Source of the DNA: a virus
Lineage: Duplodnaviria > Caudoviricetes
Virus record (IMG/VR): IMGVR_UViG_3300029309_000040
Location: 1-58,273 of that record
Strand: one strand, 5' to 3'
DNA: 58,273 nucleotides
The position numbers were made by a program, and so were the translations under genes. How positions within the stretch are numbered: the first letter of the stretch is position 1; each line of letters starts with the position of its first letter. Positions 5,988 to 37,849 of this stretch are shown here, one piece after another. The notes under the pieces are model-generated. The model made no database searches. It was not told the origin of the DNA and saw nothing but the letters and a program-made list of their open reading frames with translations.

Positions 5988-7397
5988 ATGGCAACTATTA
6001 ACAGTCCCGCGAGCATGGATGTCGCTCCTGCGGACTTTCGTCTGACAGCAGACAAGTATACTACTGTCGACCAGCTCATTAACACGACCAAGGACTTGGT
6101 CATTCCTGAGTTGGTTGAAACCTACGGTGATCAAGGTATCACTGGATTTCTGCGCCTTACAGGTGCTATTAAGAGCGGTGGCAGTGCCGACCAAGTAGAT
6201 TGGTGGGAAGTTGGCCGTCGTCATAAAACAGCATCTATTAACTGCGGTACTGGTACGGGTGAGACTATCACTGGTGCTGTAGCGGCTGATGGTGATCCAG
6301 GAAGCGACCCAGCTACATCGAAGTTCTTCCAGACCAATGACGTTCTGATGAACACGGTCACGGGGGCTCGTCTCTTGGTCGTGGACGACTTGAGAACAGG
6401 TGATACGGATGGTGTGACTTTGGCTCGCCTTGATGGTGTTGCTATCGCAAACGATGGCCTTACTTACACGGCTTCTACTGCTGAGACCTACATCGTTCTC
6501 GGTAACATCTACGCGCAGGGTACAAACCAGCCTGAGCACTTCCTCGACACTGATGTGTTTCGTCAGAAGAATCCATTCATGATTGTAAAGGATCGCTTCC
6601 AAGTGAACGGTTCTCAGGCTACAAACATCGGATGGGTGAACGTCGGTGGCGGAGAGTATCGCTGGTTTATGTACGGTGAGCAAGAGGCACGTAAGCGCTT
6701 CGAGGATCGCCGCGAGATGATGATGCTCTTCGGTGAGCAGAACGCAGAGACAAGCACTGGCATCCTCAAGGACCTCCCTGGTTCAGACGGATACTTTACG
6801 CAGGTTGATGCTCGCGGTATCAAGGTTACCAACGCAAACGCTAACCCACTGGATAGCTTCGCTGAGTTTGACGATATCATCATCGAGCTGGATAAGCAAG
6901 GAGCTCCTAGCGAGTACGCCATGTACTTGAACCGCAAGCAAGACCTCGCTATCGACGATATGCTTGCTGCTGGAATTGCTACTAGTGTTACGGCTGGTTT
7001 ACCCGCTCAGTTTGGTGCTTTCCAAAACAGTGCAGACATGGCCGTGCAGCTCGGATTTAAGAGCTTCACCCGTGGTGGATACACGTTCCACAAGCACGAC
7101 TGGAAGTTGCTGAACGATCCTAATTTGCTGGGTGCTAGCACGAAGTTCCAAGGTGCCATGTTGCCTCTCACGCAGGTGGCTGATGCACGTACAGGAATGA
7201 AGGCTCCTTCCTTGGCTATGTACTACAAGGAAGCTAACGGATACAGCCGCGAGATGGAGCACTGGGTAACTGGTGGTGGAGTCCTCGGACACACCAACAA
7301 TGGCGATACTGGAGCTGACGTAGCGACGTTCCACTACCGCTCTGAGGTTGCTCTCTGCGTCCGCGCTGCTAACCAGCACGTTATCCTTAAGGGCTAA
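5988..7397 (+). CDS. Major capsid protein
   Basis: 469 aa after the scaffold; RFEDRREMMMLFGE and LGFKSFTRGGYTFHKHDWKLLND resemble Bacteroidota podovirus capsids; followed by a strong hairpin. Confidence 0.8.
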   Translation: MATINSPASMDVAPADFRLTADKYTTVDQLINTTKDLVIPELVETYGDQGITGFLRLTGAIKSGGSADQVDWWEVGRRHKTASINCGTGTGETITGAVAADGDPGSDPATSKFFQTNDVLMNTVTGARLLVVDDLRTGDTDGVTLARLDGVAIANDGLTYTASTAETYIVLGNIYAQGTNQPEHFLDTDVFRQKNPFMIVKDRFQVNGSQATNIGWVNVGGGEYRWFMYGEQEARKRFEDRREMMMLFGEQNAETSTGILKDLPGSDGYFTQVDARGIKVTNANANPLDSFAEFDDIIIELDKQGAPSEYAMYLNRKQDLAIDDMLAAGIATSVTAGLPAQFGAFQNSADMAVQLGFKSFTRGGYTFHKHDWKLLNDPNLLGASTKFQGAMLPLTQVADARTGMKAPSLAMYYKEANGYSREMEHWVTGGGVLGHTNNGDTGADVATFHYRSEVALCVRAANQHVILKG

Positions 7398-7410
7398 TAA
7401 CTTGAAGTGA

Positions 7411-23400: not shown

Positions 23401-24899
23401 CAGGGAGGTCTGACATGGTGCAGAAGATGGTGAAACGCGTGCCGCAAACCCTCAAGGCTCTGATGCAAGAAGAGGTGAGAGGCAAGGACTCTGCTCTGTC
23501 TCAGTACTACGCCGAGTTTAAAGAAGACGGTGGAAAGACGGGATGGGCATACGCTAAAAGTCTAGCACAGAGAAAAACAGAAATCGAAAATTCTCTGCGG
23601 GGAGCTGAGTTCAAAGGCAAAGGTTTTCTGAATCTTCTTGAGGGAGTCAACGACGCAGTAGAGAACAGCATCCGTCTAGCTGCATACATCGAAGCTCGTG
23701 AAGCTGGGGTGACGCGAGAGAAGGCAGCTCAACTCGCGAAGAACATCACTGTAAACTTCAACAAATCAGGTACGCTAGGCCCTGCAGCTAACAGCCTGTT
23801 TCTTTTCTTCAACGCAGCGGTGCAAGGTAGTGCCCGCACCGTTCGGAGTCTGAAGTCCCCCAAAGTGCAAAAAGCTGTAGGGCTGATGACTCTCAGTGCG
23901 GCGATGTTGGATATGGCAAATCGAGGCATGTCTGGGGAAGATGAAGATGGAGTTCTCTGGTACGACAAAATCTCCCCGTACAAGAAAGAGAGAAGCATCA
24001 TCATCATGACGGGGACAGGTCCTGACGACTACGTATCGATTCCTCTACCGTATGGGTTTGGAGCATTCTGGAGTGTCGGAACTGCGATGTCTGCTGTAGC
24101 AAACGAAGCCATGTCCGTCGATCAGGCCTTAGGCTTTACTGCTCGCAGTGTCATCACCAACTTCTCTCCAGTGCAACTGAGTGAGGGTGACAACCCTGAT
24201 GTAAACGCCCTTCGTACTATCACCCCTACCGTTCTTACACCTCTTCTCGATCGGGCAACGAATCAAACTTACTATGGTGGGAAAGTATACAGAGAGCAGT
24301 TTCCAGGTGGCACGCCTAAGCCAGAGTCTGAACTCGCGTATCGCGCTCCGCGCCTTGCCATTGAAGCTGCCCGAGCCGTAAATGTCGCTACTGGTGGTAG
24401 CCCCAACGTGCCAGGCAAGATAGATTACAACCCCGACAAGGATTGGTACACCCTTGATTTTGCGATGGGAAGTGCAGGTAAGACTGCCATTCGAACAGGA
24501 CAACTTGCCAAGGATATAGTGACGGGAGCGCCAATCAAAACTAGGAACGTTCCGTTCGCTCGGGTATTTCTCGGGAGCGCACAGGAAGACGCATACTCTT
24601 ATGACATCGATCGCTTCGAAGCGAACCGAGTAGAGGTCGAGCAGCTATTCAATGAGTTCAAGAGCAAGTCAAAGGAAGATCCTGAAGCGGGCAGATACAC
24701 GGGCATCCCAAAGCTCAAAGGGCAGCTACGTAAAGCTGAGAACCTACTGAAGGTTCAGAGAAAGAAGTTGCGCGACGCTCAGGATATCGAAAACTACGCG
24801 GAGCGATCTGAGGTTATTCAAAACATCCGCGAGGCTCAACGTAAGATTATGATGAACTTCAACAAAGAATATAATCGTGTCAGAAAAGAAAAAGATTAA
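20472..24899 (+). CDS. Large internal virion protein with LPD38-like C-terminal domain
   Basis: NPEFVLTNFSRD, ENSIRLAAY, ITVNFNKSG, FLFFNAAVQG and IPLPYGFG motifs typical of large polyvalent/ejection proteins. Confidence 0.7.
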   Translation: MEDEDFQQLLLDYAATANLPKNNGDWDVIDAKFPELEKYDRDVLHSYVLTYNQANQPDNMEDLGVINAKFPELFPVKKKDEAQVAPSVSVADGEETSAVSPSISDAPSIDSGTPEPLTAKTPDEVPFQEVQFLTGDFGNAINSVPFLGDIIDDSARAIAQGKRQGNVVNDALSVMSRGAAASDEDVLALIAEVQRMEELGPSEEFNNFQKVATEEGGVFGFLKALATEPQAVPEVFLQSMSALVNPASAAVALPIVSGGGLLGGPGGAAASLPYAMAAAGTTLETALTFAELLQEEVKEKGLEFDLDGVNAVLDDTEALNRIRRKSAVRGGVIGTVDALTGRVSTKVAQKALLTGSKAKAVVKTGAVEAVGGGVGEATGSAAIGKPIEVVEVGLEMAGGTPGAGVSLASAALRPGKYKVNGETVDRAFVQDILKNATPEELANLEISVENDKDLKAEMQEQQLRSQLAENLPRNFSEEANAELLDLEYERAVLTGKRDSRSKKKRIDEIDARIDEIFESEKMRKAQEAGMGELRETGLIVGGEKGFEVTRTVTPVEQEVATMEGGEVAGQETDIGAPLPPPEPSGKAFEAPKKTRYEATRDLLIRKFQDKFIDVFRLQDAVTAARGDLSQDQDFRMAEELFYGRAADKIEKLEGKLEDITSGMKEAGLTMDQFDEYLYARHAKERNSKIFESQKAEADKLRSKENKTSKEKNRLKQLEERMRNMDGSGMSDAEADAILQSYEKEFGDMIGPDQKSSIQNLHDLVMEITAENRALAVEAGLISQEEADRQFAEQPNYVPLQGFAVDESGAQTGSSYVSGGQGFNVRGKEGKRAKGRQSKAANPLAQLVTNSATLRIRAERNMALQKLHNLVAENPNPDVWTVLGPGQKPDPTRSVGVKINGEEHFIQFENSDHVKSLKEMGVEDIGMLGRFFRGANNWLRRSFTTINPEFVLTNFSRDIQSAVLNAVAETDIPGGQISGRSDMVQKMVKRVPQTLKALMQEEVRGKDSALSQYYAEFKEDGGKTGWAYAKSLAQRKTEIENSLRGAEFKGKGFLNLLEGVNDAVENSIRLAAYIEAREAGVTREKAAQLAKNITVNFNKSGTLGPAANSLFLFFNAAVQGSARTVRSLKSPKVQKAVGLMTLSAAMLDMANRGMSGEDEDGVLWYDKISPYKKERSIIIMTGTGPDDYVSIPLPYGFGAFWSVGTAMSAVANEAMSVDQALGFTARSVITNFSPVQLSEGDNPDVNALRTITPTVLTPLLDRATNQTYYGGKVYREQFPGGTPKPESELAYRAPRLAIEAARAVNVATGGSPNVPGKIDYNPDKDWYTLDFAMGSAGKTAIRTGQLAKDIVTGAPIKTRNVPFARVFLGSAQEDAYSYDIDRFEANRVEVEQLFNEFKSKSKEDPEAGRYTGIPKLKGQLRKAENLLKVQRKKLRDAQDIENYAERSEVIQNIREAQRKIMMNFNKEYNRVRKEKD

Positions 24900-25326
24900 G
24901 GATACAGCCCTCGGGGCGTGGCTGAGTACGAAGGTGCCAGCCCTAGCAGATAAAGTCGGGGACCTCCTCCCAGAGAGCGGGGTGCTGGGCGTAGTCAAGA
25001 ACCTCGTAGACAAAGAGCCAGGTGTATCTACTGAAGACAAGCTAGAGTTTGAGAAGCTCAAGCAGCAGCAAGAGGTAGAGGCTCAGAAGCAAGTGACTGA
25101 GCGCTGGAAAGCAGACATGGGGAGCGATGTAAAGCTCGCCAAGATGATCCGTCCCGTCACCCTTATCGCACTGATGACGATGTTTATGGTGACGATGGTG
25201 GCAGATAGCATGGACAACTGGGCCTTCAATGTAAAGGACAGCTATGTCGATCTACTGCAGATACTGATGCTTACGGCCTTTGGTGCGTACTTCGCTGGAA
25301 GAACTATCGAGAAGGCTAAGAAGTGA
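24877..25326 (+). CDS. Holin (3TM, GTA-holin-like)
   Basis: VTERWKADMGSD..LAKMIRP, hydrophobic segments, GAYFAGRTIEK C-terminus. Confidence 0.75.
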   Translation: MSEKKKIKDTALGAWLSTKVPALADKVGDLLPESGVLGVVKNLVDKEPGVSTEDKLEFEKLKQQQEVEAQKQVTERWKADMGSDVKLAKMIRPVTLIALMTMFMVTMVADSMDNWAFNVKDSYVDLLQILMLTAFGAYFAGRTIEKAKK

Positions 25327-25329
25327 TTG

Positions 25330-25386
25330 TTAGGCGCTGATGCCGAGGGCGGCAAGGGTCAGCATGAATACGATCAATAGTGTCAT
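25330..25386 (-). CDS. 18-aa hydrophobic peptide MTLLIVFMLTLAALGISA
   Basis: ATG..TAA; own TACCTTTG -7 box (25392-25399) 5 nt upstream; below the ORF-track cutoff. Confidence 0.55.
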   Translation of the reverse strand: MTLLIVFMLTLAALGISA

Positions 25387-25416
25387 ATGTACAAAGGTAC
25401 GTAACATTCCCTTAAC

Positions 25417-25456
25417 ATAAAGGAGGGGGAGTGCCGTTGCACCACCCCCTCTTTAT
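25417..25456. terminator. Long stem-loop, probable bidirectional terminator between converging arms
   Basis: ATAAAGGAGGGGGAGTGC-CGTT-GCACCACCCCCTCTTTAT. Confidence 0.75.
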
Positions 25457-25543
25457 CAATCGAAACTCTACCGAGGAAAAAACACACAAACCTCTTCGTC
25501 CTTGCGGACTAGCTGGGTAGCCAGCTGAACCAAAATCCTGTTA
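25417..25543 (-). ncRNA. Candidate small RNA (~125 nt)
   Basis: TATATTTG box on the minus strand at 25547-25554, three consecutive hairpins, then the terminator; no ORF evident. Confidence 0.5.
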
Positions 25544-25555
25544 GCACAAATATAG

Positions 25556-26071
25556 TCAGCGCTTGAATACGCTACAAACTTTCTTTGTCTCAGGGTGGAT
25601 GTATGTATTGCAGTACCCAACAAGCTGATAGCTATCTAAGGTTTGTAAATCATCAAGCACCAAGTAGGTGATGAGATCGCCCCTGCCCTTTCGGCTGTAA
25701 CACTTCTTGTACGCTTGGCTTTTGCTCACCAGACCATCAAAGTCTACGTGCTCTTTGCAGTAAGCTTTCAACTCCTCTCTGTCAACAACGACAAAAGCAG
25801 CTAGCTCGGGCATGTCAAATGCAATGCTTATAGCCTCACCAAACAACCACCCGTGATTGCCTTTTACGTTCTTCAACTCCACCCAAATCTCGTCAGGGAG
25901 GTTGTTCCCTTTGACATCGACCCCCTGATCGTCGTGCCAATAGTCAATATGCATGTGTCTGTCCTCGTCTCGTGAGGACTTCCTCACCCCAGGGTTGGCA
26001 CGCTCGTACCTTGTGGCGGAGACACCGCCATTACGCCATGACGCTTTCCTTCGTTCTTTACTGGGCTTCAT
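25556..26071 (-). CDS. PD-(D/E)xK-like nuclease
   Basis: HIDYW...VDVKG...IWVELKNVKGNHGWL. Confidence 0.6.
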   Translation of the reverse strand: MKPSKERRKASWRNGGVSATRYERANPGVRKSSRDEDRHMHIDYWHDDQGVDVKGNNLPDEIWVELKNVKGNHGWLFGEAISIAFDMPELAAFVVVDREELKAYCKEHVDFDGLVSKSQAYKKCYSRKGRGDLITYLVLDDLQTLDSYQLVGYCNTYIHPETKKVCSVFKR

Positions 26072-26282
26072 TGTATTGCTTCACTGCCTCTCGGATAAGG
26101 TCAGCTTCAATAAGCATCCATCGCCTGTACTCGCTGATGGTGTCGTAGACTTTGTCAGTGCTAGTTTCGACCGCGCCGCTGCTAGTATGTAATGCTTCAT
26201 ACAGCTCCCTAGACGCTTCTTGCATGCGACTGCAAGCACCGTAGTAGGTTTGGCTCAGGTCTGTTTCCGCACCGTTAGACAT
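26058..26282 (-). CDS. Hypothetical protein
   Basis: ORF overlapping both neighbours in the operon. Confidence 0.6.
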   Translation of the reverse strand: MSNGAETDLSQTYYGACSRMQEASRELYEALHTSSGAVETSTDKVYDTISEYRRWMLIEADLIREAVKQYNEAQ

Positions 26283-26718
26283 CCGAAAGCTTCTTGATAT
26301 CCTCGATCACTTGATCAATTTGCTGTTTGTTTTTTGCAATATAAACAGCACAGGCTTTGTCATTTTCCACTAAGTGATGCAGAAAAAGCTTCCACCGCAT
26401 AGGGAAGTCGTGGTGCGAATGCAAGTACCCCTTGGTCTCTATCACCCAACTCTCGTCCTTAGCTACGAAGTCGGGGGTGTACCTGATGGGGAGCTGAACA
26501 GAGTCTGACCTGTCTGTCAAGTGCTTGCGCTTGGCCGTCATCTTCAAGTACCTGTTCGGATACCTGAACTTATCCATCAGCACATACTCCTTGCCCTCGT
26601 AGTCGAAGTCCAACCCCGCAGCACGCAGTTGGTCGTTGCAATACTTCTCTATCCCACTCTTAAACTTCCCAAGGTTCTTCTTCCGACTCGGCTTCGTCCC
26701 AGCTTTGCGCTTCTTCAT
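26275..26718 (-). CDS. T7 endonuclease I-like Holliday junction resolvase
   Basis: FKSGIE, YE, YTPDF and IETKG motifs. Confidence 0.8.
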   Translation of the reverse strand: MKKRKAGTKPSRKKNLGKFKSGIEKYCNDQLRAAGLDFDYEGKEYVLMDKFRYPNRYLKMTAKRKHLTDRSDSVQLPIRYTPDFVAKDESWVIETKGYLHSHHDFPMRWKLFLHHLVENDKACAVYIAKNKQQIDQVIEDIKKLSDV

Positions 26719-28561
26719 CTATTGGTAATTTAGATAAAAAATCATCATTCCGAGACAAAGCATGGGATAATTTGTCAATAGCAATTTCTTGTTGCTCCCC
26801 GCCAGTAAAGACTTTTGGTGGCATCAACGTCTTCTGTTTCCCCCACTCGATAAATCCTGTGTGGCTCGTATTCATTATCATTTTGAACGGTTCATCTAAA
26901 GGAGAGGGGCTACCCCCCGTCTCAGTTTCGCGAACCTTGCGGATGTGAACCTCTGTCATGCTCCTAGTGTGCGGATCGGGGGCCTGTACCTTTCGGTGTA
27001 TGGTAAGGAAGCAGTCGGCTCTGTTCACGAACTTACCCCCACCCTCAGTGTCCTCAGCAAATGGGGCGATAGGCAATCCATCATCCCCCTTCCTGCGTTG
27101 TGCTTCCGTTACAGCATGCATGTTCAACCATACAGCTACGTTGTGCTTCTTACTGAACGTTAAGAAGGCCGTAGCAGCCTCGTAGTGGTACTCGTGGGTG
27201 CTCTGCATTTCAGACTTCCGCATGTCTAGTCGAAGACTGTTGTAGGGGTCTACAAAGACTGCGTCTACATCGTGGTAGAAGTGTGTCTTTTCCATAAACA
27301 ACAGCATCTCCATGTAAGAGTAAACATGGCTAGTGCTGACGATGTAGAAGTGTTCGTTGACCCAATCGTAGCTGCACTTGCGCTCGTGATATGTCATGGC
27401 TGCTACTTTCTTATCGCAGACCATCTGCATCAACGACATTTTAATACTGCTGGTTCTGTTCTCAGCGGAGTATATCATCCACTTCCAACCGTGGCGCACA
27501 GTACAGTTTACGATGAGGTACAAGGCCGCCGTGGTCTTACCCACGTTGCTGTGACCGTTCATAATCAAGAACTCTTTCTTGTACCTGAACAACTTGTCTA
27601 ACTCTTCACTGCCTGTATCCAACCCTTGCTCGATCCTGCCCTGGGCATAGTCTTCAATCCATTGGAAGTCATCGTCAGGGTCGACGAGGAAACTCAGGTC
27701 CCCGTCTTCAATACGCATGTGCCTCTCGGCCTCCTCTTCTTGCTGTACTATGTCACGTATGGGTCGGGTCTTGCCATGCTCGATACCCTCTCGGATAGCG
27801 GTGATGGCAGAGTCCATACTGTCTATGTCTCGCTTCGATATCTCCCGAGAGAGGACGCGCACGACCTCCTCCTCCTCCATCTTACCGACAGCGATATAAC
27901 CACCACACAAGGTGGCAGCCTTAATAAGTACGTTGTGCTTCTCCCCTTCTTCTGCTCTGCGCACCATACGCGCAGCGATGTTGAGTTTGTCGTAGTCTGT
28001 GTGCTGAGGAGTGGCCTCCTGTATGGCAGCCTCAAACTTCTCCTCCGTGACAAACTTCCCGAACTTCTGACATGTCGTTTTAATTACTATGTCTGGGTCG
28101 TAAGACTCGAAGCACGCACGGCTTAGATTGATGCCGCTCTCATCGAGCTCCAACCCATACCGACTGTCGAAGTATCGGACGAGGGCGCGAAAGTGATCTC
28201 TGTGTCTTTCAGGGTGACTAATCTTTACCAGTGCCTTGACCCCATTCCCTGATGGGGAAACCCAGCAACTGTATATGTACTCGTCACGGCTTAAAAATTT
28301 CTTTACCGAGTCGACATCTACTTTATCGAAGTCGAGAACGATATAACCGCTGTGCTCTTTAATTCCAGAGTCGACGCGAGATGAAAACTCCCCACTGAAT
28401 AGTACAGCGGGGAGCTTCATTTTCTTCTCCTTGTCGCCTGATCTTACCTGCTCAACTGTGGTACGAGAGGCCCCTATCTTGATCCGTTGTAGTGCTTGTG
28501 GCACTGTGATCTTTACTGGGTTCCCCTTCTCGTATATGCTTGTGAAGATTGTAGCCTTCAT
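26660..28561 (-). CDS. Primase-helicase (VirE-N/BT4734-like primase plus SF4 DnaB-like helicase)
   Basis: KMKLPAVLFSGEF, LDFD, VSPSGNGVK, RACFESYD; Walker A GHSNVGKT; VFVDPYN. Confidence 0.85.
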   Translation of the reverse strand: MKATIFTSIYEKGNPVKITVPQALQRIKIGASRTTVEQVRSGDKEKKMKLPAVLFSGEFSSRVDSGIKEHSGYIVLDFDKVDVDSVKKFLSRDEYIYSCWVSPSGNGVKALVKISHPERHRDHFRALVRYFDSRYGLELDESGINLSRACFESYDPDIVIKTTCQKFGKFVTEEKFEAAIQEATPQHTDYDKLNIAARMVRRAEEGEKHNVLIKAATLCGGYIAVGKMEEEEVVRVLSREISKRDIDSMDSAITAIREGIEHGKTRPIRDIVQQEEEAERHMRIEDGDLSFLVDPDDDFQWIEDYAQGRIEQGLDTGSEELDKLFRYKKEFLIMNGHSNVGKTTAALYLIVNCTVRHGWKWMIYSAENRTSSIKMSLMQMVCDKKVAAMTYHERKCSYDWVNEHFYIVSTSHVYSYMEMLLFMEKTHFYHDVDAVFVDPYNSLRLDMRKSEMQSTHEYHYEAATAFLTFSKKHNVAVWLNMHAVTEAQRRKGDDGLPIAPFAEDTEGGGKFVNRADCFLTIHRKVQAPDPHTRSMTEVHIRKVRETETGGSPSPLDEPFKMIMNTSHTGFIEWGKQKTLMPPKVFTGGEQQEIAIDKLSHALSRNDDFLSKLPIDEEAQSWDEAESEEEPWEV

Positions 28562-28811
28562 CTCTAGCGATCATAAGCAGGATGAAGTACCCTGCCAAGT
28601 CGAGTAGGGTGTCCTCCGTTCGAGCATCCAAGCCAACGTTTTTGATGCGCTTGAGCTTGTCGTCGATGCGGATTCGTATCCCATACTCGGCATTGGCAGA
28701 AGAAAAGATGTTCAGAGGGGACAGCGCACTGTCACCGTAAGCATCATTCTTGGCTAGTAGCAGGTCTCGAACCTTGGCTGTGGCCGCTACTATCTGGTCC
28801 TTTCTTGTCAT
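28452..28811 (-). CDS. Nucleotide-modification-associated domain protein (Nmad1/DUF1599-like)
   Basis: KNDAYGDS, IRIDDKLKRI, EDTLLDLAGY. Confidence 0.7.
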   Translation of the reverse strand: MTRKDQIVAATAKVRDLLLAKNDAYGDSALSPLNIFSSANAEYGIRIRIDDKLKRIKNVGLDARTEDTLLDLAGYFILLMIARDEGYNLHKHIREGEPSKDHSATSTTTDQDRGLSYHS

Positions 28812-29067
28812 CCGTAGGTTGATTTTCTCTACCCAACACTGTGACGTCGAGAACTTCTGTGATGTTGACAGGCTTCTCTTTCACCTTCCTGTTGCCATAG
28901 TACTCTCGCCGTAGCCGCTGCATGGTAGTTTTATCATACAGCATGATGTCTATGGGGTCCAGGTATCGCGTGATTACCCACGCTTCGGTCGTCACTTCTC
29001 GCTTGCTACGGGTGTAGGTCAGCGTGACGGTCAGGTAGTAAATCGGATCTTTAGAACGGTAGGTCAC
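28744..29067 (-). CDS. Hypothetical protein
   Basis: ORF in operon; overlaps neighbours. Confidence 0.5.
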   Translation of the reverse strand: MTYRSKDPIYYLTVTLTYTRSKREVTTEAWVITRYLDPIDIMLYDKTTMQRLRREYYGNRKVKEKPVNITEVLDVTVLGRENQPTDDKKGPDSSGHSQGSRPATSQE

Positions 29068-29347
29068 TGCTTACGTTCGCAGCGGCCTTCTTCTCCCGCG
29101 CTTCCTTGGCCCCTTCACTGTTGGGGTCGTAGACGCGGCAACAAGCTTTACCGCTGCGGCTCATGAACATCGTGAGGTATACGTTGCCTCCACCGCGCTC
29201 ACTCTTCTGTGTGAGATACTTGTCTAGCATCTCCTGCAACTCATGGTCTTTGAGCTTGAGCCTCCAACTCAAAAGCTCATTGTTGTCATTGAATTGGGGG
29301 TCGTCGGCCCAGCCGACCAGCACACTATCGGGCTTTCTATCAGTCAT
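29051..29347 (-). CDS. Single-stranded DNA-binding protein-like
   Basis: C-terminal SSDLPF tail; next to the exonuclease/recombinase pair. Confidence 0.55.
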   Translation of the reverse strand: MTDRKPDSVLVGWADDPQFNDNNELLSWRLKLKDHELQEMLDKYLTQKSERGGGNVYLTMFMSRSGKACCRVYDPNSEGAKEAREKKAAANVSSDLPF

Positions 29348-29409
29348 TTTCTGTGTGTTAAAGAATGTGTATGAGGACGAATGTAAGCAAAGCTATTATA
29401 TACAACAAG

Positions 29410-30174
29410 TCAGACTTCGAATTTTGCATAGCCTTCTAATTCTGATTCAGGTGTCTGTAACCATTGCTGGATGTTATCCACTGCCTCGTTGAACTTCATC
29501 TCCCCTGCAAACAGGGTCTTGTCCGTGCATTTTACTAGCCCAGGGTAGTAGGGGTCTGTCTTCTCCTGTACTAACCAGTAGAAGTCAGACTTGCCCGTGA
29601 CCAACGTATATATGTACGCTTGGATGTCGTAGCAAAACGAGTTGACATCGTATCGGAACTTGTCCATGGATCGTGTCGACTTACTGTCCACTACATAGTC
29701 TGGGTGTAAGTAGTCGATGAACCCTTTGAGGGGGATGTCATCTACGTCAGTGTTGAACTCCACTTGTGGTTGCCCCTCGGTAAGTACAAAGTCTAGCAAC
29801 CCCTCGTCGTCAAGGCGAGTAATCATATCCTCGGCCCTCTGCCAATCGTCGCTGCTGACGATGGTGCGTCCTGACTCTGAAGCTGCGTTTTGAAAAGTTT
29901 TGACTCGGTCCTTATACTCCTTTGTGAGCTTCACATTCTTGGCCTGAATACCCTTGCTCAGTTCTTCTTCGTCCATCACGATGTATTGATCGGGGGCGAG
30001 GTTGGGGGTCAAGAGCAGACAGTCGTATAGGGAGCCGAAGCGCAATGCTTCGGACTCCTTGAACAACTCACCACGCATGTACTTCTCGAACTGTCGCATA
30101 TCCCCAAGGGCATACTTCAGTGACGAATAAGACAGGTGCGGCTTCCCGTACCGTTCTTGTAGTTGGTCTCTCAT
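29410..30174 (-). CDS. RecE-like PD-(D/E)xK exonuclease
   Basis: HLSYSSLK, FGSLYDCLLL, LKGFID, VVDSKST, YDIQAYIY. Confidence 0.8.
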   Translation of the reverse strand: MRDQLQERYGKPHLSYSSLKYALGDMRQFEKYMRGELFKESEALRFGSLYDCLLLTPNLAPDQYIVMDEEELSKGIQAKNVKLTKEYKDRVKTFQNAASESGRTIVSSDDWQRAEDMITRLDDEGLLDFVLTEGQPQVEFNTDVDDIPLKGFIDYLHPDYVVDSKSTRSMDKFRYDVNSFCYDIQAYIYTLVTGKSDFYWLVQEKTDPYYPGLVKCTDKTLFAGEMKFNEAVDNIQQWLQTPESELEGYAKFEV

Positions 30175-30755
30175 CTTACAAACTTGAATAGCCCAGCAAG
30201 CTGTTGCTCGGTGAGTTGCCCCCCGTACTTACTCTCAATTAAATCGTATGCCTTGCGCTTGTCCTTGGACCCTTTGACGTAGTTCACTGCCTTGTCCATG
30301 ATGTCTTCGACAGGGGCCTCCTCTTTCTTAGGAGCTGCCTTTTTCGCAGGGGCTTTCTTAGCAGGGGCCTTCTTCTTTGCAGGGGTGGGCTTCTCTTCCT
30401 GTTGCTCGATAGCCGTCTCGACCTCGTTGGCAGAAGCGATGCTGGTATCGATACCGATGCCTAAGCATGCAAGAGCGCGGCCCCAGGCAGAGGTCTCACA
30501 GTTCTCCACATAGGAGGTCTTGTTAATGTTGGAGGCGGAGCGAACCTCCATGGCGTGGCCCACGGCCCTTGTCCTCCCCTGATCGTCCACAATGCATGCG
30601 CGGCACATAGCATGCTCTGCATCCAACTCCGTGAATTCCGAGAGGATGCTCCAATTCTCGTACTTCTTCTCCTGACGGAAGAACTTGATGCGTTCGTTGA
30701 CTTCAACGTACTGCTTGCCACGGATGTTCGTGGTCTTGAATTTGTAGTTACTCAT
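30171..30755 (-). CDS. Single-strand annealing recombinase (Sak/Rad52-like)
   Basis: IRGKQYVEVNERI and ENCETSAWGRALACLGIG; PAKK linker. Confidence 0.65.
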   Translation of the reverse strand: MSNYKFKTTNIRGKQYVEVNERIKFFRQEKKYENWSILSEFTELDAEHAMCRACIVDDQGRTRAVGHAMEVRSASNINKTSYVENCETSAWGRALACLGIGIDTSIASANEVETAIEQQEEKPTPAKKKAPAKKAPAKKAAPKKEEAPVEDIMDKAVNYVKGSKDKRKAYDLIESKYGGQLTEQQLAGLFKFVR

Positions 30756-30766
30756 GTGAATTGTAG

Positions 30767-31369
30767 TTAGAATCCGTGTTTCACTGCCCTCGATTTTAGA
30801 TTGTTGAAGGCTTCGATCAAAGGTTGGTTGTTCTCATGGTATCGCCCGACGAGCCGCTCCCCAGTCCAAATCGTGATGAACTCATCGAGCAGTTCTTGGG
30901 CCAACTTCCCTCGCTGCAGTTGTTTCTCAGTGCCATAGACTGGGACTCTAGACATATCGTGCTTCCCTGATATATCGCTAAGCCTGTCTAAACAAGCTTG
31001 GAATAGAGCAGAGAACTTCAAGTCAGTCTCACGTAGCATGTTGCACTTCTTGATGCTGTTTAGTATCGTAGCGTGATCCCTCCCTATACTTTTAGCCGTT
31101 TGTGTCAGAGTAGATTCTGGGTCTAAGCTGTGGCATAACATACTGTAGGTGTGTCGGGCGTATACCACACACCGCTTTCTAGACCTCCCCAATATCTCTG
31201 TCCCTTCTATGTTAAAGACGTCTGTAACAACGCTCATCACATCGTGACGTATTTTTTCAGAGGATATCGCATTCAAATGCACTTTGGTGGCTACAGCGGT
31301 CAACTGCTGCTGCTCTTTTTTAAGTCGCTCTGCTACAACCTTAAACTTCTTCCTTTGTGATGTACTCAT
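30767..31369 (-). CDS. DnaA C-terminal (domain IV) HTH protein
   Basis: SRKRCVVYARH...LTQTAKSIGRDHATIL matches the DnaA DNA-binding signature. Confidence 0.8.
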   Translation of the reverse strand: MSTSQRKKFKVVAERLKKEQQQLTAVATKVHLNAISSEKIRHDVMSVVTDVFNIEGTEILGRSRKRCVVYARHTYSMLCHSLDPESTLTQTAKSIGRDHATILNSIKKCNMLRETDLKFSALFQACLDRLSDISGKHDMSRVPVYGTEKQLQRGKLAQELLDEFITIWTGERLVGRYHENNQPLIEAFNNLKSRAVKHGF

Positions 31370-31748
31370 GGTGTGTTGGTATTATGATTAGCCTACCGAA
31401 TGTGGCAATCAATTTGTGTTTGGTGTTGTCGATGTCTTCTCTCTTGTTGTCGAACCAATGCGCCCTGCGCTTTGGATTGTAGTGACAGAAGCTCTTGACA
31501 TCGGGGATGTAGTGCTGGCCTCGTGGCTCGACCACTAGGCGGTCGCACTCGACCCACGCACATACAGTTTTGTTTTCCCCCTGGAGAATCTTCTCCGCCG
31601 TACCACGTTGGTTGCGTAAGGTGGCGTTGTGCATCTCCAAGATGACGTCCTCGGGGTCGTAGTACTCTGGGTCTGTGTCGCCTAAGCGCACCTGCCAACG
31701 TTGATAGTTCGGGCCTCGGCCCAAGTGGAATCTCACTCTAGTCTTCAT
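31341..31748 (-). CDS. Hypothetical early protein
   Basis: Likely start MKTRVRFHL at 31748 within track ORF 31341..31832. Confidence 0.6.
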   Translation of the reverse strand: MKTRVRFHLGRGPNYQRWQVRLGDTDPEYYDPEDVILEMHNATLRNQRGTAEKILQGENKTVCAWVECDRLVVEPRGQHYIPDVKSFCHYNPKRRAHWFDNKREDIDNTKHKLIATFGRLIIIPTHHEYITKEEV

Positions 31749-32393
31749 GGTTGTGTAGTTCAAGGACTTTGTTGATAGTGACAGTACCGAACTGGGTCTG
31801 CCTCTGTATGCGCTTCTTGTGGTTGACGGCATCGGTCATGTCAGAGCAGGGGATCCACCCTGAAGACATCCCCTCCCCGTCTTTACCTGAGAGGTACGCC
31901 ACTACATATTTAACTCTGTTGTTCATTGTACTTTTTTACTTTCTGGTTGTATTCTGAGACGTGTTGTTCTAGTGACGCTCGTAGCTCTTCGTTCTCTGGT
32001 TCATCGAGTAGTTCGTTGCTTAGCTTCAAGATGTCCGCATACAATTCTTTGAGTTTCTCTTCTGTCACTTCCTGTTTCTTTTTTTGACGGGCCTCATACC
32101 GCCTACCCGCTCGGTTGTTGGGGTTGACAAGTATTTGTGGGTTGTGCATCGCTATCGCCTTCATAGCGTTCTTGTTTGGCATGTGCTTTTTAGTGCTTCT
32201 TTTCATTGTGATGTGGGTTTCGGGCGGCGATACGCTCAGGGAACATGACGTCTAGCAGCTTCCTGTATCGCTTCACATATTTATCGTGTTGGTACTGGTC
32301 GTCTACGTGCCTGTCCAGTAACTCATCTAGCAAGTCCAGCAACTTATTCAGTGCCATGGCTTGTTTGATAGTCCATTTAGTTTCAGTCTTCAT
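31738..32393 (-). CDS. Three small hypothetical early ORFs (31738-31926, 31910-32206, 32190-32393)
   Basis: Tightly overlapping co-oriented ORFs. Confidence 0.55.
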
Positions 32394-32396
32394 CGT

Positions 32397-32828
32397 TCAT
32401 GTTGTTTCTCTGTACCACGTCTTGCCATTTCTTTCAAGCAAAGCGTCTAACTCTTTTAGTTTGCATTCTCCAACACCACGGAATCGCCCCATTTCTTTTC
32501 GGGTCAGCGAAGAGATAAACTCGAGAGTCATCTCGCCGTCACGAATGATTCGTTGTAACGAAGAAGAGAGAGAGCGAAACTCTTTCGGCCATGAGTACAC
32601 CTCAGACCCAACGATAATCCTCGACGGTCTGGGTATTGATGGTTTTGAATTTATCGGTTTGATTGGAGACCCTTTCAAAAACTCTGATAAGGTCTCTTCT
32701 GTAATGCGATAGGTTCTACTCCCTGGTAATTTGATGGCGGGGAGGTCGCCGCGCCGTATCATGTTTCGAATTGTTGCGTCTGATACTCGCAGTGTCTGGG
32801 CTACTTCTTTTGGCTTGTATAGTCTCAT
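32397..32828 (-). CDS. Excisionase-type HTH fused to an RNA polymerase alpha-CTD-like domain
   Basis: LYKPKEVAQTLRVSDATIRNMIRRGDLPAIK plus LSSSLQRII...LTRKEMGRFRGVGECKLKELDALL. Confidence 0.7.
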   Translation of the reverse strand: MRLYKPKEVAQTLRVSDATIRNMIRRGDLPAIKLPGSRTYRITEETLSEFLKGSPIKPINSKPSIPRPSRIIVGSEVYSWPKEFRSLSSSLQRIIRDGEMTLEFISSLTRKEMGRFRGVGECKLKELDALLERNGKTWYRETT

Positions 32829-34119
32829 CCGTTGAATGTGTTTTTGTAGGTGTCGTCGGGGCCTGTGACCAAGGTCTCCATGGGGTCGTCGTACTCCACA
32901 TCATCGAGCCGACCCTTCATTGCTTCAATGATGTCTTTCATGGTGATGTCTGATCCGTACTCTTTGTCGTGGTCAATCGACAGGGCGATAGTAAATACGG
33001 AGTTGTAGTTTTTCATCGGTTGTGTTTTTTGGGGTTGATGGCCTTCACCCTGCGGCGTTGGGCCTGTTGCTTTTCGTATGCCTCTCGGTCGATCTTGATT
33101 TCCACCTCCCCGCTGATGGGCTTGAGCAGTCGAGCGAAGAGTGGGTGGATGTGGTCGTCTTTCATTTGTTGTCGTTTGCGGCGTGGATAGCGTTCAAGTA
33201 CCTGTCATGCAAGGATTGGTATGCAGTGGACATGGCGGCCATCTTGTCCTCCACGGAGTCGAGAAAGACCCCGATGTATTCGAGGTCTGCATCGAGACCC
33301 CACCTACGGAATTTGGCGTTGTCGCTCCAGAACTCAATGAAGTCTGTCATGCGCTTCTGCGCACCCTCAATAGTGGTTTCCATAACGGGGGTGATTTTGC
33401 TCACTCTGTCCTTGTACAGTTGTTCTTTTGTCATGTCGTGTGTGTTGCGATGATGAGTAGCAGGGTGAGCAGGAGTCCCGCCCACCCCCATGCTACGATG
33501 TCTTCAGTGTGCTTCATCCGTTAGGGAGGAAGGTGTCCATGATACGGTTGAAGTGGTCGAGGTAGTCAGCCTTGATGCTGTCCTCGTCTTTGTTCAAGAC
33601 TCGGAGGAACTTGCGTACCTCTTCTTCACGCGCTTGATACTCGTGGATTTGTTTCAGCAAGTTGTTGCGCTGAAGGTTCTCTTGGTCTGCCATTGTGTTT
33701 TGATTGATGTGCAATTGTACTAATTGTTTATGACTTGTGCAAGCTGTGGGTTTGTTTTTAACATTGTGTGTGTATTCGTTTCCGTCTGCTGCGTATAGTT
33801 TCATCGTTCGTCGTGTTTTGTGTCAGGGTCGGGTTGCCAAGTGCAGTCTGGGCAGGGGATGAGTTTGCTTGCAGGGTCCATCTTGAACCCGTCCCATATC
33901 TCCTGCTCTCCATCGCAGGTCTCGCAGGTGTGTTCGTCTTCGTTCATGTCAGTGGATTTTGTGAATTTCGATGTCATCGTAATGCAAGGACCAAAACGCC
34001 CTGCATCTCTGCGCTTCGTGTTCTGTGCTGCACAGCCCAAGTTCGAATGTCTTTCCGTTGCTCATACTATGTCTAGGTGCTACGCCTGTGACTCGGAATA
34101 AAGGTTTGTCTTCGTTCAT
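32825..34119 (-). CDS. Cluster of small early ORFs (32825-33016, 33013-33165, 33162-33434, 33514-33693, 33801-33947 and others)
   Basis: Co-oriented short ORFs with ATGA overlaps and CA-rich leaders; 33801 ORF has CxxC..CxxC. Confidence 0.5.
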
Positions 34120-34134
34120 GTGTGTGTGTTAAAC

Positions 34135-34767
34135 TCACAGCGTATTGGAAACGTGGAGTAAGATTTCTGTACAGAGCGCATCGGGGATTTTGCTTCGCTC
34201 GTGGTTGCCCTTCAATCCCTGGGTTCCCGTCCGTGACCCCCGTGGGGCAGCCTCATGGCACGGAGCGCCGTTCTTGCACATCGGGCGACCAACCCAAGTG
34301 CATCTCGTGCTGTGCCATATATCCGTGGGCTTCATTCGGGTGTCCCCATATTGGCAGTACGTCACTGTCGTTCGTTGGAACTGTTGGACCTCAGGGGTCT
34401 TCCTCATCATCCCCCGTGGATTCTCAATGAAGAAGTGTGATGGCTGCAAGGTTTCAATAATGTTGATTGTCTTGCGCAGTAACTCAAGGCCCAACCTAGC
34501 CGTGTCCGTTTTAGGGGTGTGAAACTCCTCCCCCCTCTCCCAATGGTGACCGATCGCGGCTACACTGAACCCCGTACAAGGTGGGGAAGCCCAAATCATA
34601 TCAGGTTTCCAAGGGATGCGGGAAAGGTCGAACTCCCGCACATCGCACACATAATCGATGCCCCCAAAGTCGGTGATGTCTGAACTGAAGACCTCCATCC
34701 CCAACCTTTCAGCGGCCTTGCCTATGCTTCGGCTACCTGCAAATAGTTCTAGCACTTTCATAATCAA
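34135..34767 (-). CDS. DNA cytosine-C5 methyltransferase (short)
   Basis: Motif I ELFAGS, motif IV SPPC, motif VI ENP. Confidence 0.85.
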   Translation of the reverse strand: MIMKVLELFAGSRSIGKAAERLGMEVFSSDITDFGGIDYVCDVREFDLSRIPWKPDMIWASPPCTGFSVAAIGHHWERGEEFHTPKTDTARLGLELLRKTINIIETLQPSHFFIENPRGMMRKTPEVQQFQRTTVTYCQYGDTRMKPTDIWHSTRCTWVGRPMCKNGAPCHEAAPRGSRTGTQGLKGNHERSKIPDALCTEILLHVSNTL

Positions 34768-35456
34768 CAGCAGTTTTCATCGTAGACCTTGTCGAACTCG
34801 ATGTGATTGATGCGGCCACCATAGTATTCGAACCTCTTGAGAAATGAGTCAGTAAGATTTTTCCCCCTAGCCTTCATGCCTTCACGATAGGCCACCTCTA
34901 CTTTCTTCAAAGCATCCGTGGACGACTCTTTAGAAAAACAAGTGATCCCATACCCGAATACATCGGGCATCTGTGCCATATAGATTGTATCTGTCATGTT
35001 TTCTTGAATTAGTATGATTTTCATATGTCCTTGTACCCGAATACCTTCACCTCGACTACTTCCCCATAGCTTCCGAGTATTTCGCACTTCCCAAAGAAGG
35101 GGTGTTGCGGGATATAATCGAAGATGAGAGGACCTTCGGTGTCTGGGTATGCGGAAAGGAACTGCTCGCATTGGTGTTCTTCTTGGGCGGACAGAGCAGA
35201 ATCGTCGCCGTTGATGAGGGAGGGGAGGAGGTGCTGATTAATCAGGCACACGTCTATTTCAATGAGTGTTTTCATGGCTTCTGTTGTTGAGTTAGTCGTC
35301 GTAGACGTTGAGGTGTACTTCGTGAATGGTCCCATCTTCACGGTCGATCACGTCCACGTCAATACCGTAAATGTCATGCGTGGACTGCACCCATACATAC
35401 AGCGGGGTAGCGTCAGGGATGCCGTCGAGGGCCTTGATGAGTTCTGATTTTGTCAT
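34764..35456 (-). CDS. Three small early ORFs (34764-34997, 35021-35275, 35292-35456)
   Basis: Co-oriented ORFs; probable minus-strand promoter TTTG-N20-TAGTTTTA near 35481-35512. Confidence 0.5.
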
Positions 35457-35526
35457 GGGTGGTGGGGTTGATTGATGTGGTAAAACTAATAATTGTTTCC
35501 GACTTGTCCAAATTGTGCGTAAAGAA

Positions 35527-36138
35527 TCAACGTAAGACCCCCTCCCAATGTCTTTTAATCGTTACCCATATTATGGCCTGCAATTCGTAGCCCTTGAACC
35601 CTTCCCTCTTAGCTAGTCGGGCCGTGAGCCGTTCGATTCTTCTGTACTGCATCGCAGTGGGGGACTCTTGCACCGTGACCCGCTTGAGGGATGAAGTCAG
35701 GCAGGCCCGCATATGCCACTTGTCCACCGTGACGTGATCGTCGCTGTTCTCCCCAACGTTCATCGCGAAAGCGTACGTTTTCGGAGACTTGCGTAGGATC
35801 GACTCATCACCCTTAGCAATTGCAAAGGCTTTCCTCTTGTTCGCATCATAGGTGCAAACCTTCACGTCATCGGGTCCGAGTCCATCACGCACAGCTTGCA
35901 GCACTGTGAATGCATCGATTTTGTTACGTTCCCATTTATTATTCGGGGATAGGGCAGAGATGACCCCTGCGGCAACTTTGCGCGATACGTTGAATTCAAC
36001 CGACAGATACCTTGCATAATCCATCGCCTCACGATACCAAGCCCGACCCGTTTCAATGTCCTCGGGTGTTGACTCCGCCAACCATCCGCGAAGGTTACGC
36101 AGGATGGTGCCATCTTTTGTGATAGTCGCGGTTTTCAT
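35527..36138 (-). CDS. Conserved phage early protein, possibly HhH-glycosylase-like
   Basis: AWY..A, ISALSP..KWERN, KT.AF..N, VTVDKWH.R and LQAIIW motifs; likely start MKTAT at 36138. Confidence 0.55.
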   Translation of the reverse strand: MKTATITKDGTILRNLRGWLAESTPEDIETGRAWYREAMDYARYLSVEFNVSRKVAAGVISALSPNNKWERNKIDAFTVLQAVRDGLGPDDVKVCTYDANKRKAFAIAKGDESILRKSPKTYAFAMNVGENSDDHVTVDKWHMRACLTSSLKRVTVQESPTAMQYRRIERLTARLAKREGFKGYELQAIIWVTIKRHWEGVLR

Positions 36139-36685
36139 AACCCTAACTGTTTGTTTAAGTGAGTTATAAAGGTGTCCTTCCGCAGTTGCGATGCAGTCCA
36201 ACAGTAGAACCCAATCTCACAGCTTCGTGGACCAGCCCAGGGCAAGGTCGGGGCCGTCTCCGTTTGGTGTTCGCTGATATCCTTAAGCGCCTGAATTCGG
36301 GCCGCGCTGATGCCCCCTCTGTAATTGCTCATGACTCTGTCTTGATGGTGAATTCGATACAGGCTGCAGTTTCATGTAAAGAGAGGTCTGCATCCGAGGG
36401 GTTAGCCTCCGTCATGTACACGTCATCGATGGCAACTTGGCTGTGTGGGTGCATCTGCCCAATCTCGAACAAGGCCCGAGAAATTCCAAGCAACCTGTAA
36501 TACCAACCGCAATCTGCCGTCCCCTCGAACACCAACAGGCGTGCCTTTGCATACCCGCCTCGTCTCTGTACTTCTAGTCGGTACGTCCCTAACTCAGCGT
36601 CTACCGTTACATGGTTTCGTATCTGCTCATTAATTGTGTGGATCACTATATCCAAAGAGTGCGCTATGTTGAATTTTATTTTCAT
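36135..36685 (-). CDS. Two hypothetical early ORFs (36135-36332, 36329-36685)
   Basis: ATGA overlaps. Confidence 0.55.
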
Positions 36686-36758
36686 CTGTCCTAGAAATTA
36701 TAGTTGGCTGCGATAGCGTTGTAGTTGTAATCTGACACTAGCTTCATGTCGGTTTTAT

Positions 36759-37028
36759 TTACTTGATCGGGGTGGCGAAGTCAGGGGTGGCAAGGGTGTA
36801 TCCGTCCTGCGTGTCGTGCAGTACGACAGCGCTTAGGCCGATTCCCTGTGTGTGTAGATAGTCGCCCGCTTGGTTCACGATGTCACCGATTTCGTGGTTG
36901 TACGGGAGCCAAACAGTGTCGCCCCTGCGCATGTCCTTGATTCGGATGCGAACACCCTTGGTGTTCGTAGGGCCGTAAAAACGTACGTGGATGGCGCGAT
37001 AGCGCAGAAGGGTGTTGTGAAAGTCCAT
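36759..37028 (-). CDS. First early gene, hypothetical
   Basis: YGPTNTKGVRI motif; minus-strand TATCTTTG box at 37053-37060. Confidence 0.6.
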   Translation of the reverse strand: MDFHNTLLRYRAIHVRFYGPTNTKGVRIRIKDMRRGDTVWLPYNHEIGDIVNQAGDYLHTQGIGLSAVVLHDTQDGYTLATPDFATPIK

Positions 37029-37060
37029 TGTGTTTTCATTGATTGATGCCGACAAAGATA

Positions 37061-37849
37061 GTCACAGAATTCACAATTCATACACATTTTCGTGAATGTT
37101 TATTGTTTTTCCACAGGGCAAAGGGCGGAAACCCAGTAACGGCGCGGGGTGTGGGCGATGTCTTTTTTATGGCATCATGTCCGACGAAAGCGGGGGGGCA
37201 TGTCATATAGTAGGAACGGGCGGGGGGGTTGTCCCCTGCTCTCCTTTGCCGTCATCGGATGAAAACGGGGGGAACTTGGGCGGGATCGAACGGGGGTCCG
37301 TCTATAGGTTGGCGGGGATAGGCTGTGGATATCGGGGGGAAACGCTGAAAACCTGAAAAGCCCACCGATAGCAGCGGGGGGAGGGGGTTCGAGGATGCGG
37401 TTTGCGTTGCGTTGCGCAGCGTGTGCATGTATACATAATCCCCTCGCGTCAATGTTCTGGCTTCTTTTGTGGATACTTTATTACCAACTGCCCCTTGGTG
37501 CTTGTAGTTGGGTCAGGTTCGACCGTCAGGGTCCCCCCAGACCCCTGACGCAAAGAACCGCATAGAGAATCTGTCATAGAATCTTGCATTTGGGGGTTGA
37601 CATTGTCATTTTTTTTGTGTAACTTCGCATCACTCCTAGTGCTAGATTCTCAAGGTTACTCAGCGCGGGGCCTTGGGGGGCCCCACTTGGTAACCTAAGC
37701 AAATAAGAAACCCCGTTTGGGTTTTTTTTTTGGCTATACAGTGTTGACTGTGTTACTCAGTTAGGAAGTGAATACAGGGATGCTGTGTCTTGTTGTGAAG
37801 TGGGGGTTGTATGCAGTTGAGGGACAGATAGTTGCATTATCTTAGCAAT
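37061..37849. other. Divergent non-coding control region between early and late arms
   Basis: No credible ORF; G-run repeats, hairpins, promoters in both directions. Confidence 0.7.
37630..37731 (+). ncRNA. Candidate small RNA (~100 nt)
   Basis: TTGACA 37597 and TAACTTCG 37620; nested stem AGGTTAC/GTAACCT with GGGGCC/GGCCCC; terminator AAGAAACCCCGTTTGGG followed by 10 T. Confidence 0.45.

Follow-up and report, generated by a model that had tools for sequence, protein, structure and literature searches.

A candidate family of pseudoknotted RNAs at the end of the early operon in uncultured marine phages, with possible pairing to early mRNA leaders

What does a phage keep in the 229-bp gap in which its last early/replication gene meets a convergent holin-like gene, and could an RNA read from that gap act on the phage's own early messages? 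To address this question, we analyzed the whole stretch of DNA that makes up an IMG/VR virus record (58,273 bp, the window), which is estimated to be 94% complete and whose large terminase is 41-49% identical to the terminases of Flavobacterium and Cellulophaga phages (101 matching records, of which 68 are from Flavobacterium and 15 from Cellulophaga). The plus strand carries the structural, packaging, and lysis genes (portal, terminase, virion proteins, and the holin-like gene at 24877-25326), and the minus-strand block at 25556-37100 is of the replication type, encoding a primase-helicase, an endonuclease, a PD-(D/E)XK protein, a methylase, a DnaA C-terminal-like protein, and an HTH protein. 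The last gene of this block encodes a 171-aa protein that matched no PHROG or Pfam entry and found no match by tblastn against 50,697 phage records. Positions 24800-26800 were likewise without a blastn match among these 50,697 records, and no tRNA or tmRNA was found in a search of the window. Regulatory RNAs of Bacteroidota phages are almost unknown, and six putative non-coding RNAs are reported from the transcriptome of a marine Bacteroidetes phage (PMC5335546). The initial annotation of the gap, made from its letters, proposed a promoter-driven small RNA whose GU-rich loop pairs with CA-rich early leaders, and our results partly support this idea.

The element spans positions 25414-25554 of the minus strand and consists of a -7 box, three hairpins, and a terminator (Table 1). 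All of these parts were found exactly where the initial annotation had placed them, and the unit that it described is indeed there: a discrete stretch of non-coding sequence that carries a late-type promoter box and a terminator and is conserved as a structured RNA of the minus strand. The centroid fold contains exactly the three hairpins and the terminator and leaves the loop of hairpin 3 (the GU loop) unpaired, with a fold-energy z-score of only -2.13 (7 out of 200 shuffles fold as well); conservation is stronger evidence than fold energy. The terminator was absent from the list of a simple scan because its stem is bulged. Its tail (CUUUAUGUU) is weak, its hairpin is conserved and covaries, and the A-rich run upstream of it forms a U tract on the plus strand, so that it is probably bidirectional. 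Rfam gave no match at gathering score in the whole window, and at E<=10 the stretch 25300-25600 drew only tpke11 (15.7 bits vs 43) and snoR114 (14.5 vs 45). With no Rfam match, the element is not a member of the GcvB family (RF00022). We also rejected a small-protein reading of the gap, which contains only a GTG frame of 12 codons that overlaps the box and a frame of 34 codons that extends through the terminator. Just before the box, a small hairpin at 25557-25574 (minus strand) overlaps the stop codon of the 171-aa gene and was flagged as terminator-like by the terminator scan. On the far side of the terminator, a TACCTTTG box at 25399-25392 (minus strand) is followed 5 nt on by a leaderless 18-codon ORF (25386-25330, minus strand), convergent with the holin-like gene, which encodes a hydrophobic peptide and whose product may be a lysis-related micro-protein. 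The relative L092 encodes the same 18-codon peptide with a synonymous change, and in L121 the same box precedes a different hydrophobic peptide of 18 residues.

Table 1. Positions of the element, its parts, and the related promoter and leader features in the window.
Feature	Position	Strand	Remark
171-aa gene, last of the minus-strand early/replication block	25556..26071	-	From the ORF list
Box TATATTTG	25554-25547	-	Exact Bacteroidota -7 element; identical to seven late-gene boxes
Predicted transcription start	25542	-	By the rule that the G of the box lies at -5 (PMC6847099)
GAUUUUGGUU motif, 5' single-stranded part	25528..25537	-	Recurs in relatives
Hairpin 1, AGCTGG/CCAGCT, loop CTAC (RNA AGCUGG/CUAC/CCAGCU)	25526-25511	-	Stems differ among relatives
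Pseudoknot 5' side, CUACC in the hairpin 1 loop	25520-25516	-	Covariation
Hairpin 2, GTCC-GCAA-GGAC	25509-25498	-	Position variable in relatives
Hairpin 3, GAGG-TTTGTGTGTTTTTT-CCTC (RNA loop UUUGUGUGUUUUUU), the GU loop	25494-25473	-	
UGUGUUUU, part of the GU loop	25486-25479	-	Complementary to AAAACACA in two early leaders
GGUAG, pseudoknot 3' side	25468..25472	-	Pairs with the hairpin 1 loop
GAUUGAU	25455..25461	-	Complementary to AUCAAUC at the predicted 5' end of early transcripts
Terminator, GCAACGGC top, weak U tail	25414..25451	-	G/C-rich hairpin 25451-25423, then CTTTATGTT
Late boxes TATATTTG of predicted leaderless mRNAs	7956, 10157, 42415, 55581	+	422-aa, virion structural, 156-aa, and 893+-aa proteins
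Early box TATCTTTG (37060-37053), leader C-AUCAAUC-aaug-AAAACACA, ATG 37028	37026..37060	-	Proposed partner
Early leader C-AUCAAUC-AAAACACA, ATG 33693	33691..33709	-	Proposed partner
Third early leader C-AUCAAUCAA-CCCCACCACCC, ATG 35456	35454..35477	-	Only the AUCAAUC block matches in co-linear order

Relatives were collected from metagenomes by the 171-aa gene (498 relatives, 80 kept) and by the holin-like gene (402 out of 419 candidate stretches were relatives, 80 kept; the gene order beyond this gene varies), the 171-aa gene being the rarer of the two. Where the 171-aa gene is at least about 60% identical, a non-coding stretch with the same layout follows it: a hairpin whose loop is of the AGCUAU type, a middle hairpin that varies, a hairpin with a short stem and a usually G/U-rich loop, rUAGC, GAUUGA, and a terminator topped by GCAACGGC. 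Below about 62% identity, relatives lack the element and have another coding gene after the 171-aa gene. GATTGA is invariant in 14 out of 14 aligned relatives, and the terminator is the best conserved part of the element; blastn of the gap against 81 loci gave weak matches only, with no similarity beyond the terminator. A covariance model from relatives was among the checks that the initial annotation had suggested. A model of the 3' module (R1) detects it at E<0.001 in 25 of the 80 metagenome loci, each time on the strand of the gene, and its one match among the 80 holin-anchored loci is L004, a locus that has the 171-aa gene as well. Wherever the element occurs, it comes after this gene.

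Sequence conservation is uneven along the element. Between the window and L092 (protein 91% identical), the coding sequence agrees at 226 of 263 positions and the next 110 of 110 positions are identical, a block that runs from the end of the coding sequence, whose last 42 nt are invariant between the two, through the box, the 5' part, and the first two hairpins to the 5' arm of hairpin 3. The 14-nt GU loop, the conservation of which had been named as a check, agrees at 12 of 14 positions, with 2 substitutions in this relative (UUUCUGUGUUUUAU), and is AAG, UAUA, or G-rich in other clades. G/U-rich loops recur at this place in most clades, but the GU loop sequence itself is not conserved.

We observed strong covariation in the helices. 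In an 18-sequence model-fitted alignment, which by its making is biased towards the structure, all 4 hairpin 3 pairs and 7 out of 12 terminator pairs change on both sides, 98.5% of the hairpin 3 stem cells are paired, and 97.4% of all cells pair vs 85.6% in shuffles (0 out of 500). Better evidence comes from a pseudoknot, first spotted by eye, that joins the hairpin 1 loop to the GGUAG/rUAGC segment after hairpin 3. On an unfitted MAFFT alignment (A4), 93.9% of its 66 cells pair vs 76.6% in shuffled alignments, 4 out of 6 pairs change on both sides, none of 500 shuffles reaches its covariation score, and controls in which the pairing is slid pair in 15-50% of cells. The paired segments are CUACC/GGUAG in the window and GCUAUC/GAUAGC, GCUAUA/UAUAGC, and GCUACU/AGUAGC in three other clades. 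Across the three helices there are 30 G-U cells vs 3 A-C cells, which marks the minus strand as the RNA strand. RNAalifold recovered only the terminator from the MAFFT alignment. Automatic hairpin picking returned inconsistent hairpins, and the covariance model was used in its place. The alignments make a conserved knotted RNA well supported, and we regard the element, on this comparative evidence, as a structured non-coding RNA of a family not described before, which occurs in uncultured marine Flavobacteriia-type podophages.

With its compact, covarying fold immediately ahead of a terminator, the element might also be a cis-acting or protein-binding RNA, either a sensor of terminator read-through into the 18-codon micro-ORF and the holin antisense, or a decoy for a host RNA-binding protein that prefers G/U loops. 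The small leaderless ORF downstream in the window clade would fit such a sensor, and G/U-rich loops would suit a decoy, as would GAUUUUGGUU, a motif that some relatives carry in a large hairpin loop or within a second small unit and that has no exact complement elsewhere in the window. However, in many relatives the terminator abuts the convergent gene and leaves no micro-ORF, no match to a known riboswitch or protein-binding family was obtained, and no ligand or protein can be named. We consider a sensor or decoy quite improbable.

We then asked how the element is transcribed. The -7 element of Bacteroidota has the consensus TAnnTTTG (TAHHTTTG), and in Flavobacterium johnsoniae its G lies at -5, as given in PMC6847099. 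TATATTTG occurs in 8 exact copies in the window vs 1.35 expected, a number that none of 100 shuffles reaches, and the other 7 copies lie 4-24 nt before the ATGs of plus-strand late genes, including those for the portal and a virion structural protein. In 4 out of 7 of these late boxes, the ATG starts 4-5 nt after the box; with the G of the box at -5, four late mRNAs are therefore predicted to be leaderless. The proposal that late mRNAs are leaderless is supported by these four of the seven boxes. A single base separates the copy in the element from the stop codon of the 171-aa gene, no credible ORF lies behind it, and about 0.005 exact 8-mers would be expected in the gap by chance, as estimated from the box count. 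Upstream of it lies coding sequence that is less A/T-rich than at the seven late boxes, with a TTTG 20 nt upstream of the box; promoters of this type have an A/T-rich upstream region or a TTTG at -33.

In 26 distinct gaps of relatives (4427 nt), TAnnTTTG occurs 10 times in sense and once in antisense vs 1.08 expected, counts that come from box-bearing lineages which are not independent. Only 8 out of 26 gaps hold any sense-strand box. It stands at the start of the element in three lineages, namely the window clade, L106 (TATATTTG), and L098 (TAGATTTG), and in the L122 clade TATATTTG follows the first terminator and precedes a second small unit. Since most relatives have no promoter box, the element would there be a 3'UTR. 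The view of the element as an sRNA with its own promoter would fit the box in the window clade, and 18 out of 26 gaps have no box; in this phage, a separate late RNA is plausibly made. Second small units were observed after the first terminator in L122 (2075-2165), L109, L102, L106, L113, L114, and L124, and comprise a TATATT(T/A)G-like box, a GACAAG-loop hairpin, CAUCGUGAUUUUGGUU or AUUUGGUU, and a second GCAACGGC-type terminator; the window, by contrast, has GAUUUUGGUU at the 5' end of its single unit.

As to what such an RNA might act on, the GU loop had been taken to work alone, in the manner of GcvB, as the seed of a multi-target sRNA that silences many early, and perhaps host, mRNAs via CA-rich sites. 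The six leaders cited for this (33016, 29347, 34119, 33434, 33693, and 37028) are all present, with a 10-nt match at 33016 and 8 nt at the others. With start codons chosen regardless of their CA content, loop pairing of <= -9 kcal/mol was found at 7 out of 29 early starts, vs a background of 6.7% of 1731 windows and 0 out of 38 late starts, and the 12.1-kb early sense strand contains 14 copies of ACACAC (16 in the whole minus strand and 4 in the plus strand). The recurrence of G/U-rich loops in most clades also speaks for this reading. The substitutions in the 91%-identity relative and the different loops elsewhere speak against it, however, as do the tests of enrichment: a rank test against the early-strand background gave p=0.16, 10.5% of 200 permuted loops do as well, and the strongest loop duplexes lie inside coding regions. 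Start regions that are A/C-rich and G-poor are, moreover, expected anyway in Bacteroidota, according to PMC6847099. By itself, the loop shows no specific match to early start regions, and its action as a sole seed is decidedly unlikely.

What holds of this proposal is that CA-rich early leaders are complementary to the single-stranded parts of the element, and the better-supported pairing is in two blocks and at the promoter-proximal leaders 37028 and 33693, rather than at many internal starts. GAUUGAU, which the initial annotation does not mention, is the reverse complement of the predicted early transcript start and UGUGUUUU that of AAAACACA, and in the 33693 leader the complementarity to the two blocks is contiguous over 15 bases up to -1. 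The blocks are spaced 6 to 22 nt apart in the element and 0-4 nt in the leaders. The window contains exactly 4 copies of CATCAATCAA; 3 belong to the early region of the minus strand, where they precede the ATGs 37028, 35456, and 33693 by 8-25 nt. As a TATCTTTG box stands at 37060 before CATCAATCAA, early transcripts are predicted to start with (C)AUCAAUCAA, followed by a short C/A-rich leader. In G005, the closest relative with a long contig, there are four near-identical early promoters, and the predicted transcripts start with AUCAAUCAA. The three early promoter-leader units of the window (37060-37026, 35510-35454, and 33740-33691, minus strand) share CATCAATCAA at the predicted transcript start, with an upstream ACAAGTC...AAACAATTA pattern common to two of them.

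We searched each element for two exact, co-linear blocks of complementarity in the available sequence of its own genome, with 100 shuffles as the null. In the window, the top non-self score was 15, reached by five tied sites of which two are early leaders, vs a null maximum of 16.1 +/- 1.1; this score is not significant on its own. In G005, the top non-self score of 18 fell on the leader AUCAAUCAA-uca-ACACACCCC (null maximum 14.6 +/- 1.4), and in G001 the top non-self score of 17 fell on the leader CUCAACA-c-CCUAACCCC-AUG (null maximum 14.2 +/- 1.2), in which both blocks differ from those of the window. When the search was confined to leader space, composition-preserving shuffles reached the observed score in 3 out of 300 cases for the window, 0 out of 300 for G005, and 0 out of 300 for G001, whose leader space was partly set after the match was seen. 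Energy-based scans gave a different picture: among 4200 early-strand windows in a cofold scan, the best leader (33693) ranked 19th and the other two fell outside the top 25, an own-vs-foreign energy matrix gave no own-genome advantage, with modest pairing energies (about -10 kcal/mol), and RNAduplex on the whole element returned meaningless long-loop duplexes. In the more distant L178-L181, the 7-10 kb upstream held chance-level matches only and no early promoters were found there; nor were early promoters found in the available sequence of G002, G003, G004, and L179. Across genomes, the matched leaders are followed by first genes that share no homology, and a scan of viral contigs for the pattern TTTG-N3-4-CATCAATCAA gave scattered single matches in unrelated contigs.

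These results also bear on a purely structural explanation, in which the element would be a 3' end that stabilizes the long early mRNA against decay (3' or 5'-to-3') and insulates the convergent operons, while its likeness to the leaders would be a by-product, for example of an old inverted duplication, and TATATTTG would be idle or weak. The 18 gaps without a promoter box, the terminator as the best conserved part and the upstream A-rich run that lets it work both ways, the thermodynamic scans that do not single out leaders, and four genomes with no match are all in line with it. A stabilizer, however, needs no invariant GAUUGAU, and an 8-mer identical to the late boxes is unlikely to fall one base past the stop codon by chance. 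A structural role leaves unexplained that three genomes, each with a different sequence, have an early leader as their best same-genome complement. We hold such a role to be possible, if on the unlikely side.

At the DNA level, the same 7-8-mer is found at three early promoters and, inverted, in the gap, and the early block encodes DnaA C-terminal-like and HTH proteins. One could thus regard ATCAATCA as an operator or replication-related site for a phage DNA-binding protein, placed at the early promoter +1 and, inverted, in the convergence zone. This reading is highly improbable, given that the helices covary with 30 G-U vs 3 A-C cells, which is a property of one RNA strand, and that the block spacing differs between element and leaders to an extent that is tolerable for RNA and usually not for a protein site. 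The DnaA-domain protein itself (200 aa, 30767-31369, minus strand) contains the DnaA C-terminal helix-turn-helix domain (4.3e-13) and could be a candidate binder of a repeated DNA site in the phage.

Taken as a whole, the best explanation in our view is a structured 3'UTR or sRNA of a new family that pairs with early leaders, to which we assign a probability of roughly 0.4. The complementarity is observed, and the pairing is a plausible inference from it. In most relatives, the element would be the 3'UTR of the early operon, and in the window clade it would be an RNA of its own of about 125 nt (~25542 to ~25414), made late in infection from the late-type box. The fold would leave part of the GU loop (UGUGUUUU) and the invariant GAUUGAU single-stranded, and both segments would pair co-linearly with the short CA-rich early leaders, which start with AUCAAUC and end with AAAACACA before the AUG. 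Such pairing would cover the entire leader up to the start codon and could thereby block ribosome loading, in a host setting without Shine-Dalgarno pairing, or open the mRNA to decay. It might act in trans, as a late sRNA, or in cis, by pairing of the 5' and 3' ends of the long early mRNA. There is no strong minus-strand terminator between the early promoters and the element, and the long early mRNA probably carries both a leader and its complement. Pairing with early leaders offers a testable hypothesis of early-gene shut-off in a host with Shine-Dalgarno-less mRNAs, and the element adds a concrete, covariation-supported RNA family with a pseudoknot. As a by-product, the analysis yields a grammar of early and late promoters for a large group of uncultured marine phages, with late mRNAs predicted to be leaderless and early mRNAs predicted to have a 5'-terminal sequence in common.

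In its fullest form, early shut-off would be carried out by RNA only: a pseudoknotted anti-leader RNA from a late promoter would clamp the 5' AUCAAUC and the CA tract of early mRNAs and co-evolve with the leaders, and clades without the promoter would release the same RNA from the 3'UTR, the knot resisting 5'-to-3' decay. The co-evolving pairs would be AUCAAUC and AAAACACA in the window, AUCAAUCAA and ACACACCCC in G005, and CUCAACA and CCUAACCCC in G001. We judge this extended scheme rather unlikely. It would operate in the Bacteroidota, a host phylum that has no Shine-Dalgarno pairing and reportedly lacks Hfq.

By analogy, the element would work like a base-pairing regulator, with the seed logic of GcvB and the UTR pairing of icaR, but is a member of neither family. 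GcvB is an enterobacterial, Hfq-dependent RNA. As in GcvB, a G/U-rich segment of the element, unpaired in the predicted fold, would face C/A-rich sequence just before start codons, and ACA-type sequences are described as translation enhancers that GcvB silences (PMC3879156). Unlike GcvB, the element is phage-encoded, has no Rfam match and no conserved loop, and its pairing appears to be in two blocks and aimed at the phage's own early leaders. Some 3'UTR-derived sRNAs, such as DapZ, have their own promoter near the stop codon, and the element resembles these in having a putative promoter at the end of a coding sequence and sharing the operon terminator. It differs in that its promoter is a phage late-type box, so that timing, not a host signal, would set its expression. 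In Staphylococcus aureus icaR and Bacillus subtilis hbs, a 3'UTR complementary to the translation start or 5' end of its own mRNA controls translation or decay (PMC3868564, PMC5737220). The element likewise offers a 3'UTR segment complementary to the 5' region of its own mRNA, but here the transcript would be an 8-11 kb polycistronic phage RNA with a Shine-Dalgarno-less CA-rich leader and a pseudoknotted 3'UTR, which has a promoter box of its own in one clade.

Phage RNAs such as lambda PreS/LPR1, LPR2, and OOP, P1 c4, and P22 sar resemble the element as base-pairing RNAs that tune the infection programme. P1 c4 sets two short blocks against the leader of its own operon. For lambda, a preprint discusses an RNA of the late operon that possibly acts on RNA of the early operon (10.1101/2024.10.31.621285). 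These RNAs differ from the element in that they belong to temperate coliphages, depend on Hfq, or are true cis-antisense RNAs, and none is related to it in sequence. Our literature search found no early-leader clamp for a lytic-type Bacteroidota phage. In T4, the endonuclease RegB and the repressor RegA are proteins that shut off early mRNAs. The likeness lies in the inactivation of early messages at translation start regions, with the difference that there proteins act and here an RNA would. In exoribonuclease-resistant RNAs (xrRNAs), a junction and a loop-to-downstream pseudoknot stall a 5'-to-3' exonuclease; in the element, covariation supports a loop-to-downstream pseudoknot that encloses two hairpins.

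Two further observations concern the relatives. L181 has, at about 30-105, a stretch resembling a tRNA gene at the start of the locus. In L172 (G001), we observed five copies of a long inverted repeat (at about 370-450, 1484-1555, 1981-2033, 3645-3710, and 7332-7400), which lie directly upstream of C-rich leaders (CCCCAACCCC... followed by ATG) and resemble early promoters of a hairpin type, which sets them apart from the TAnnTTTG promoters of the window and G005.
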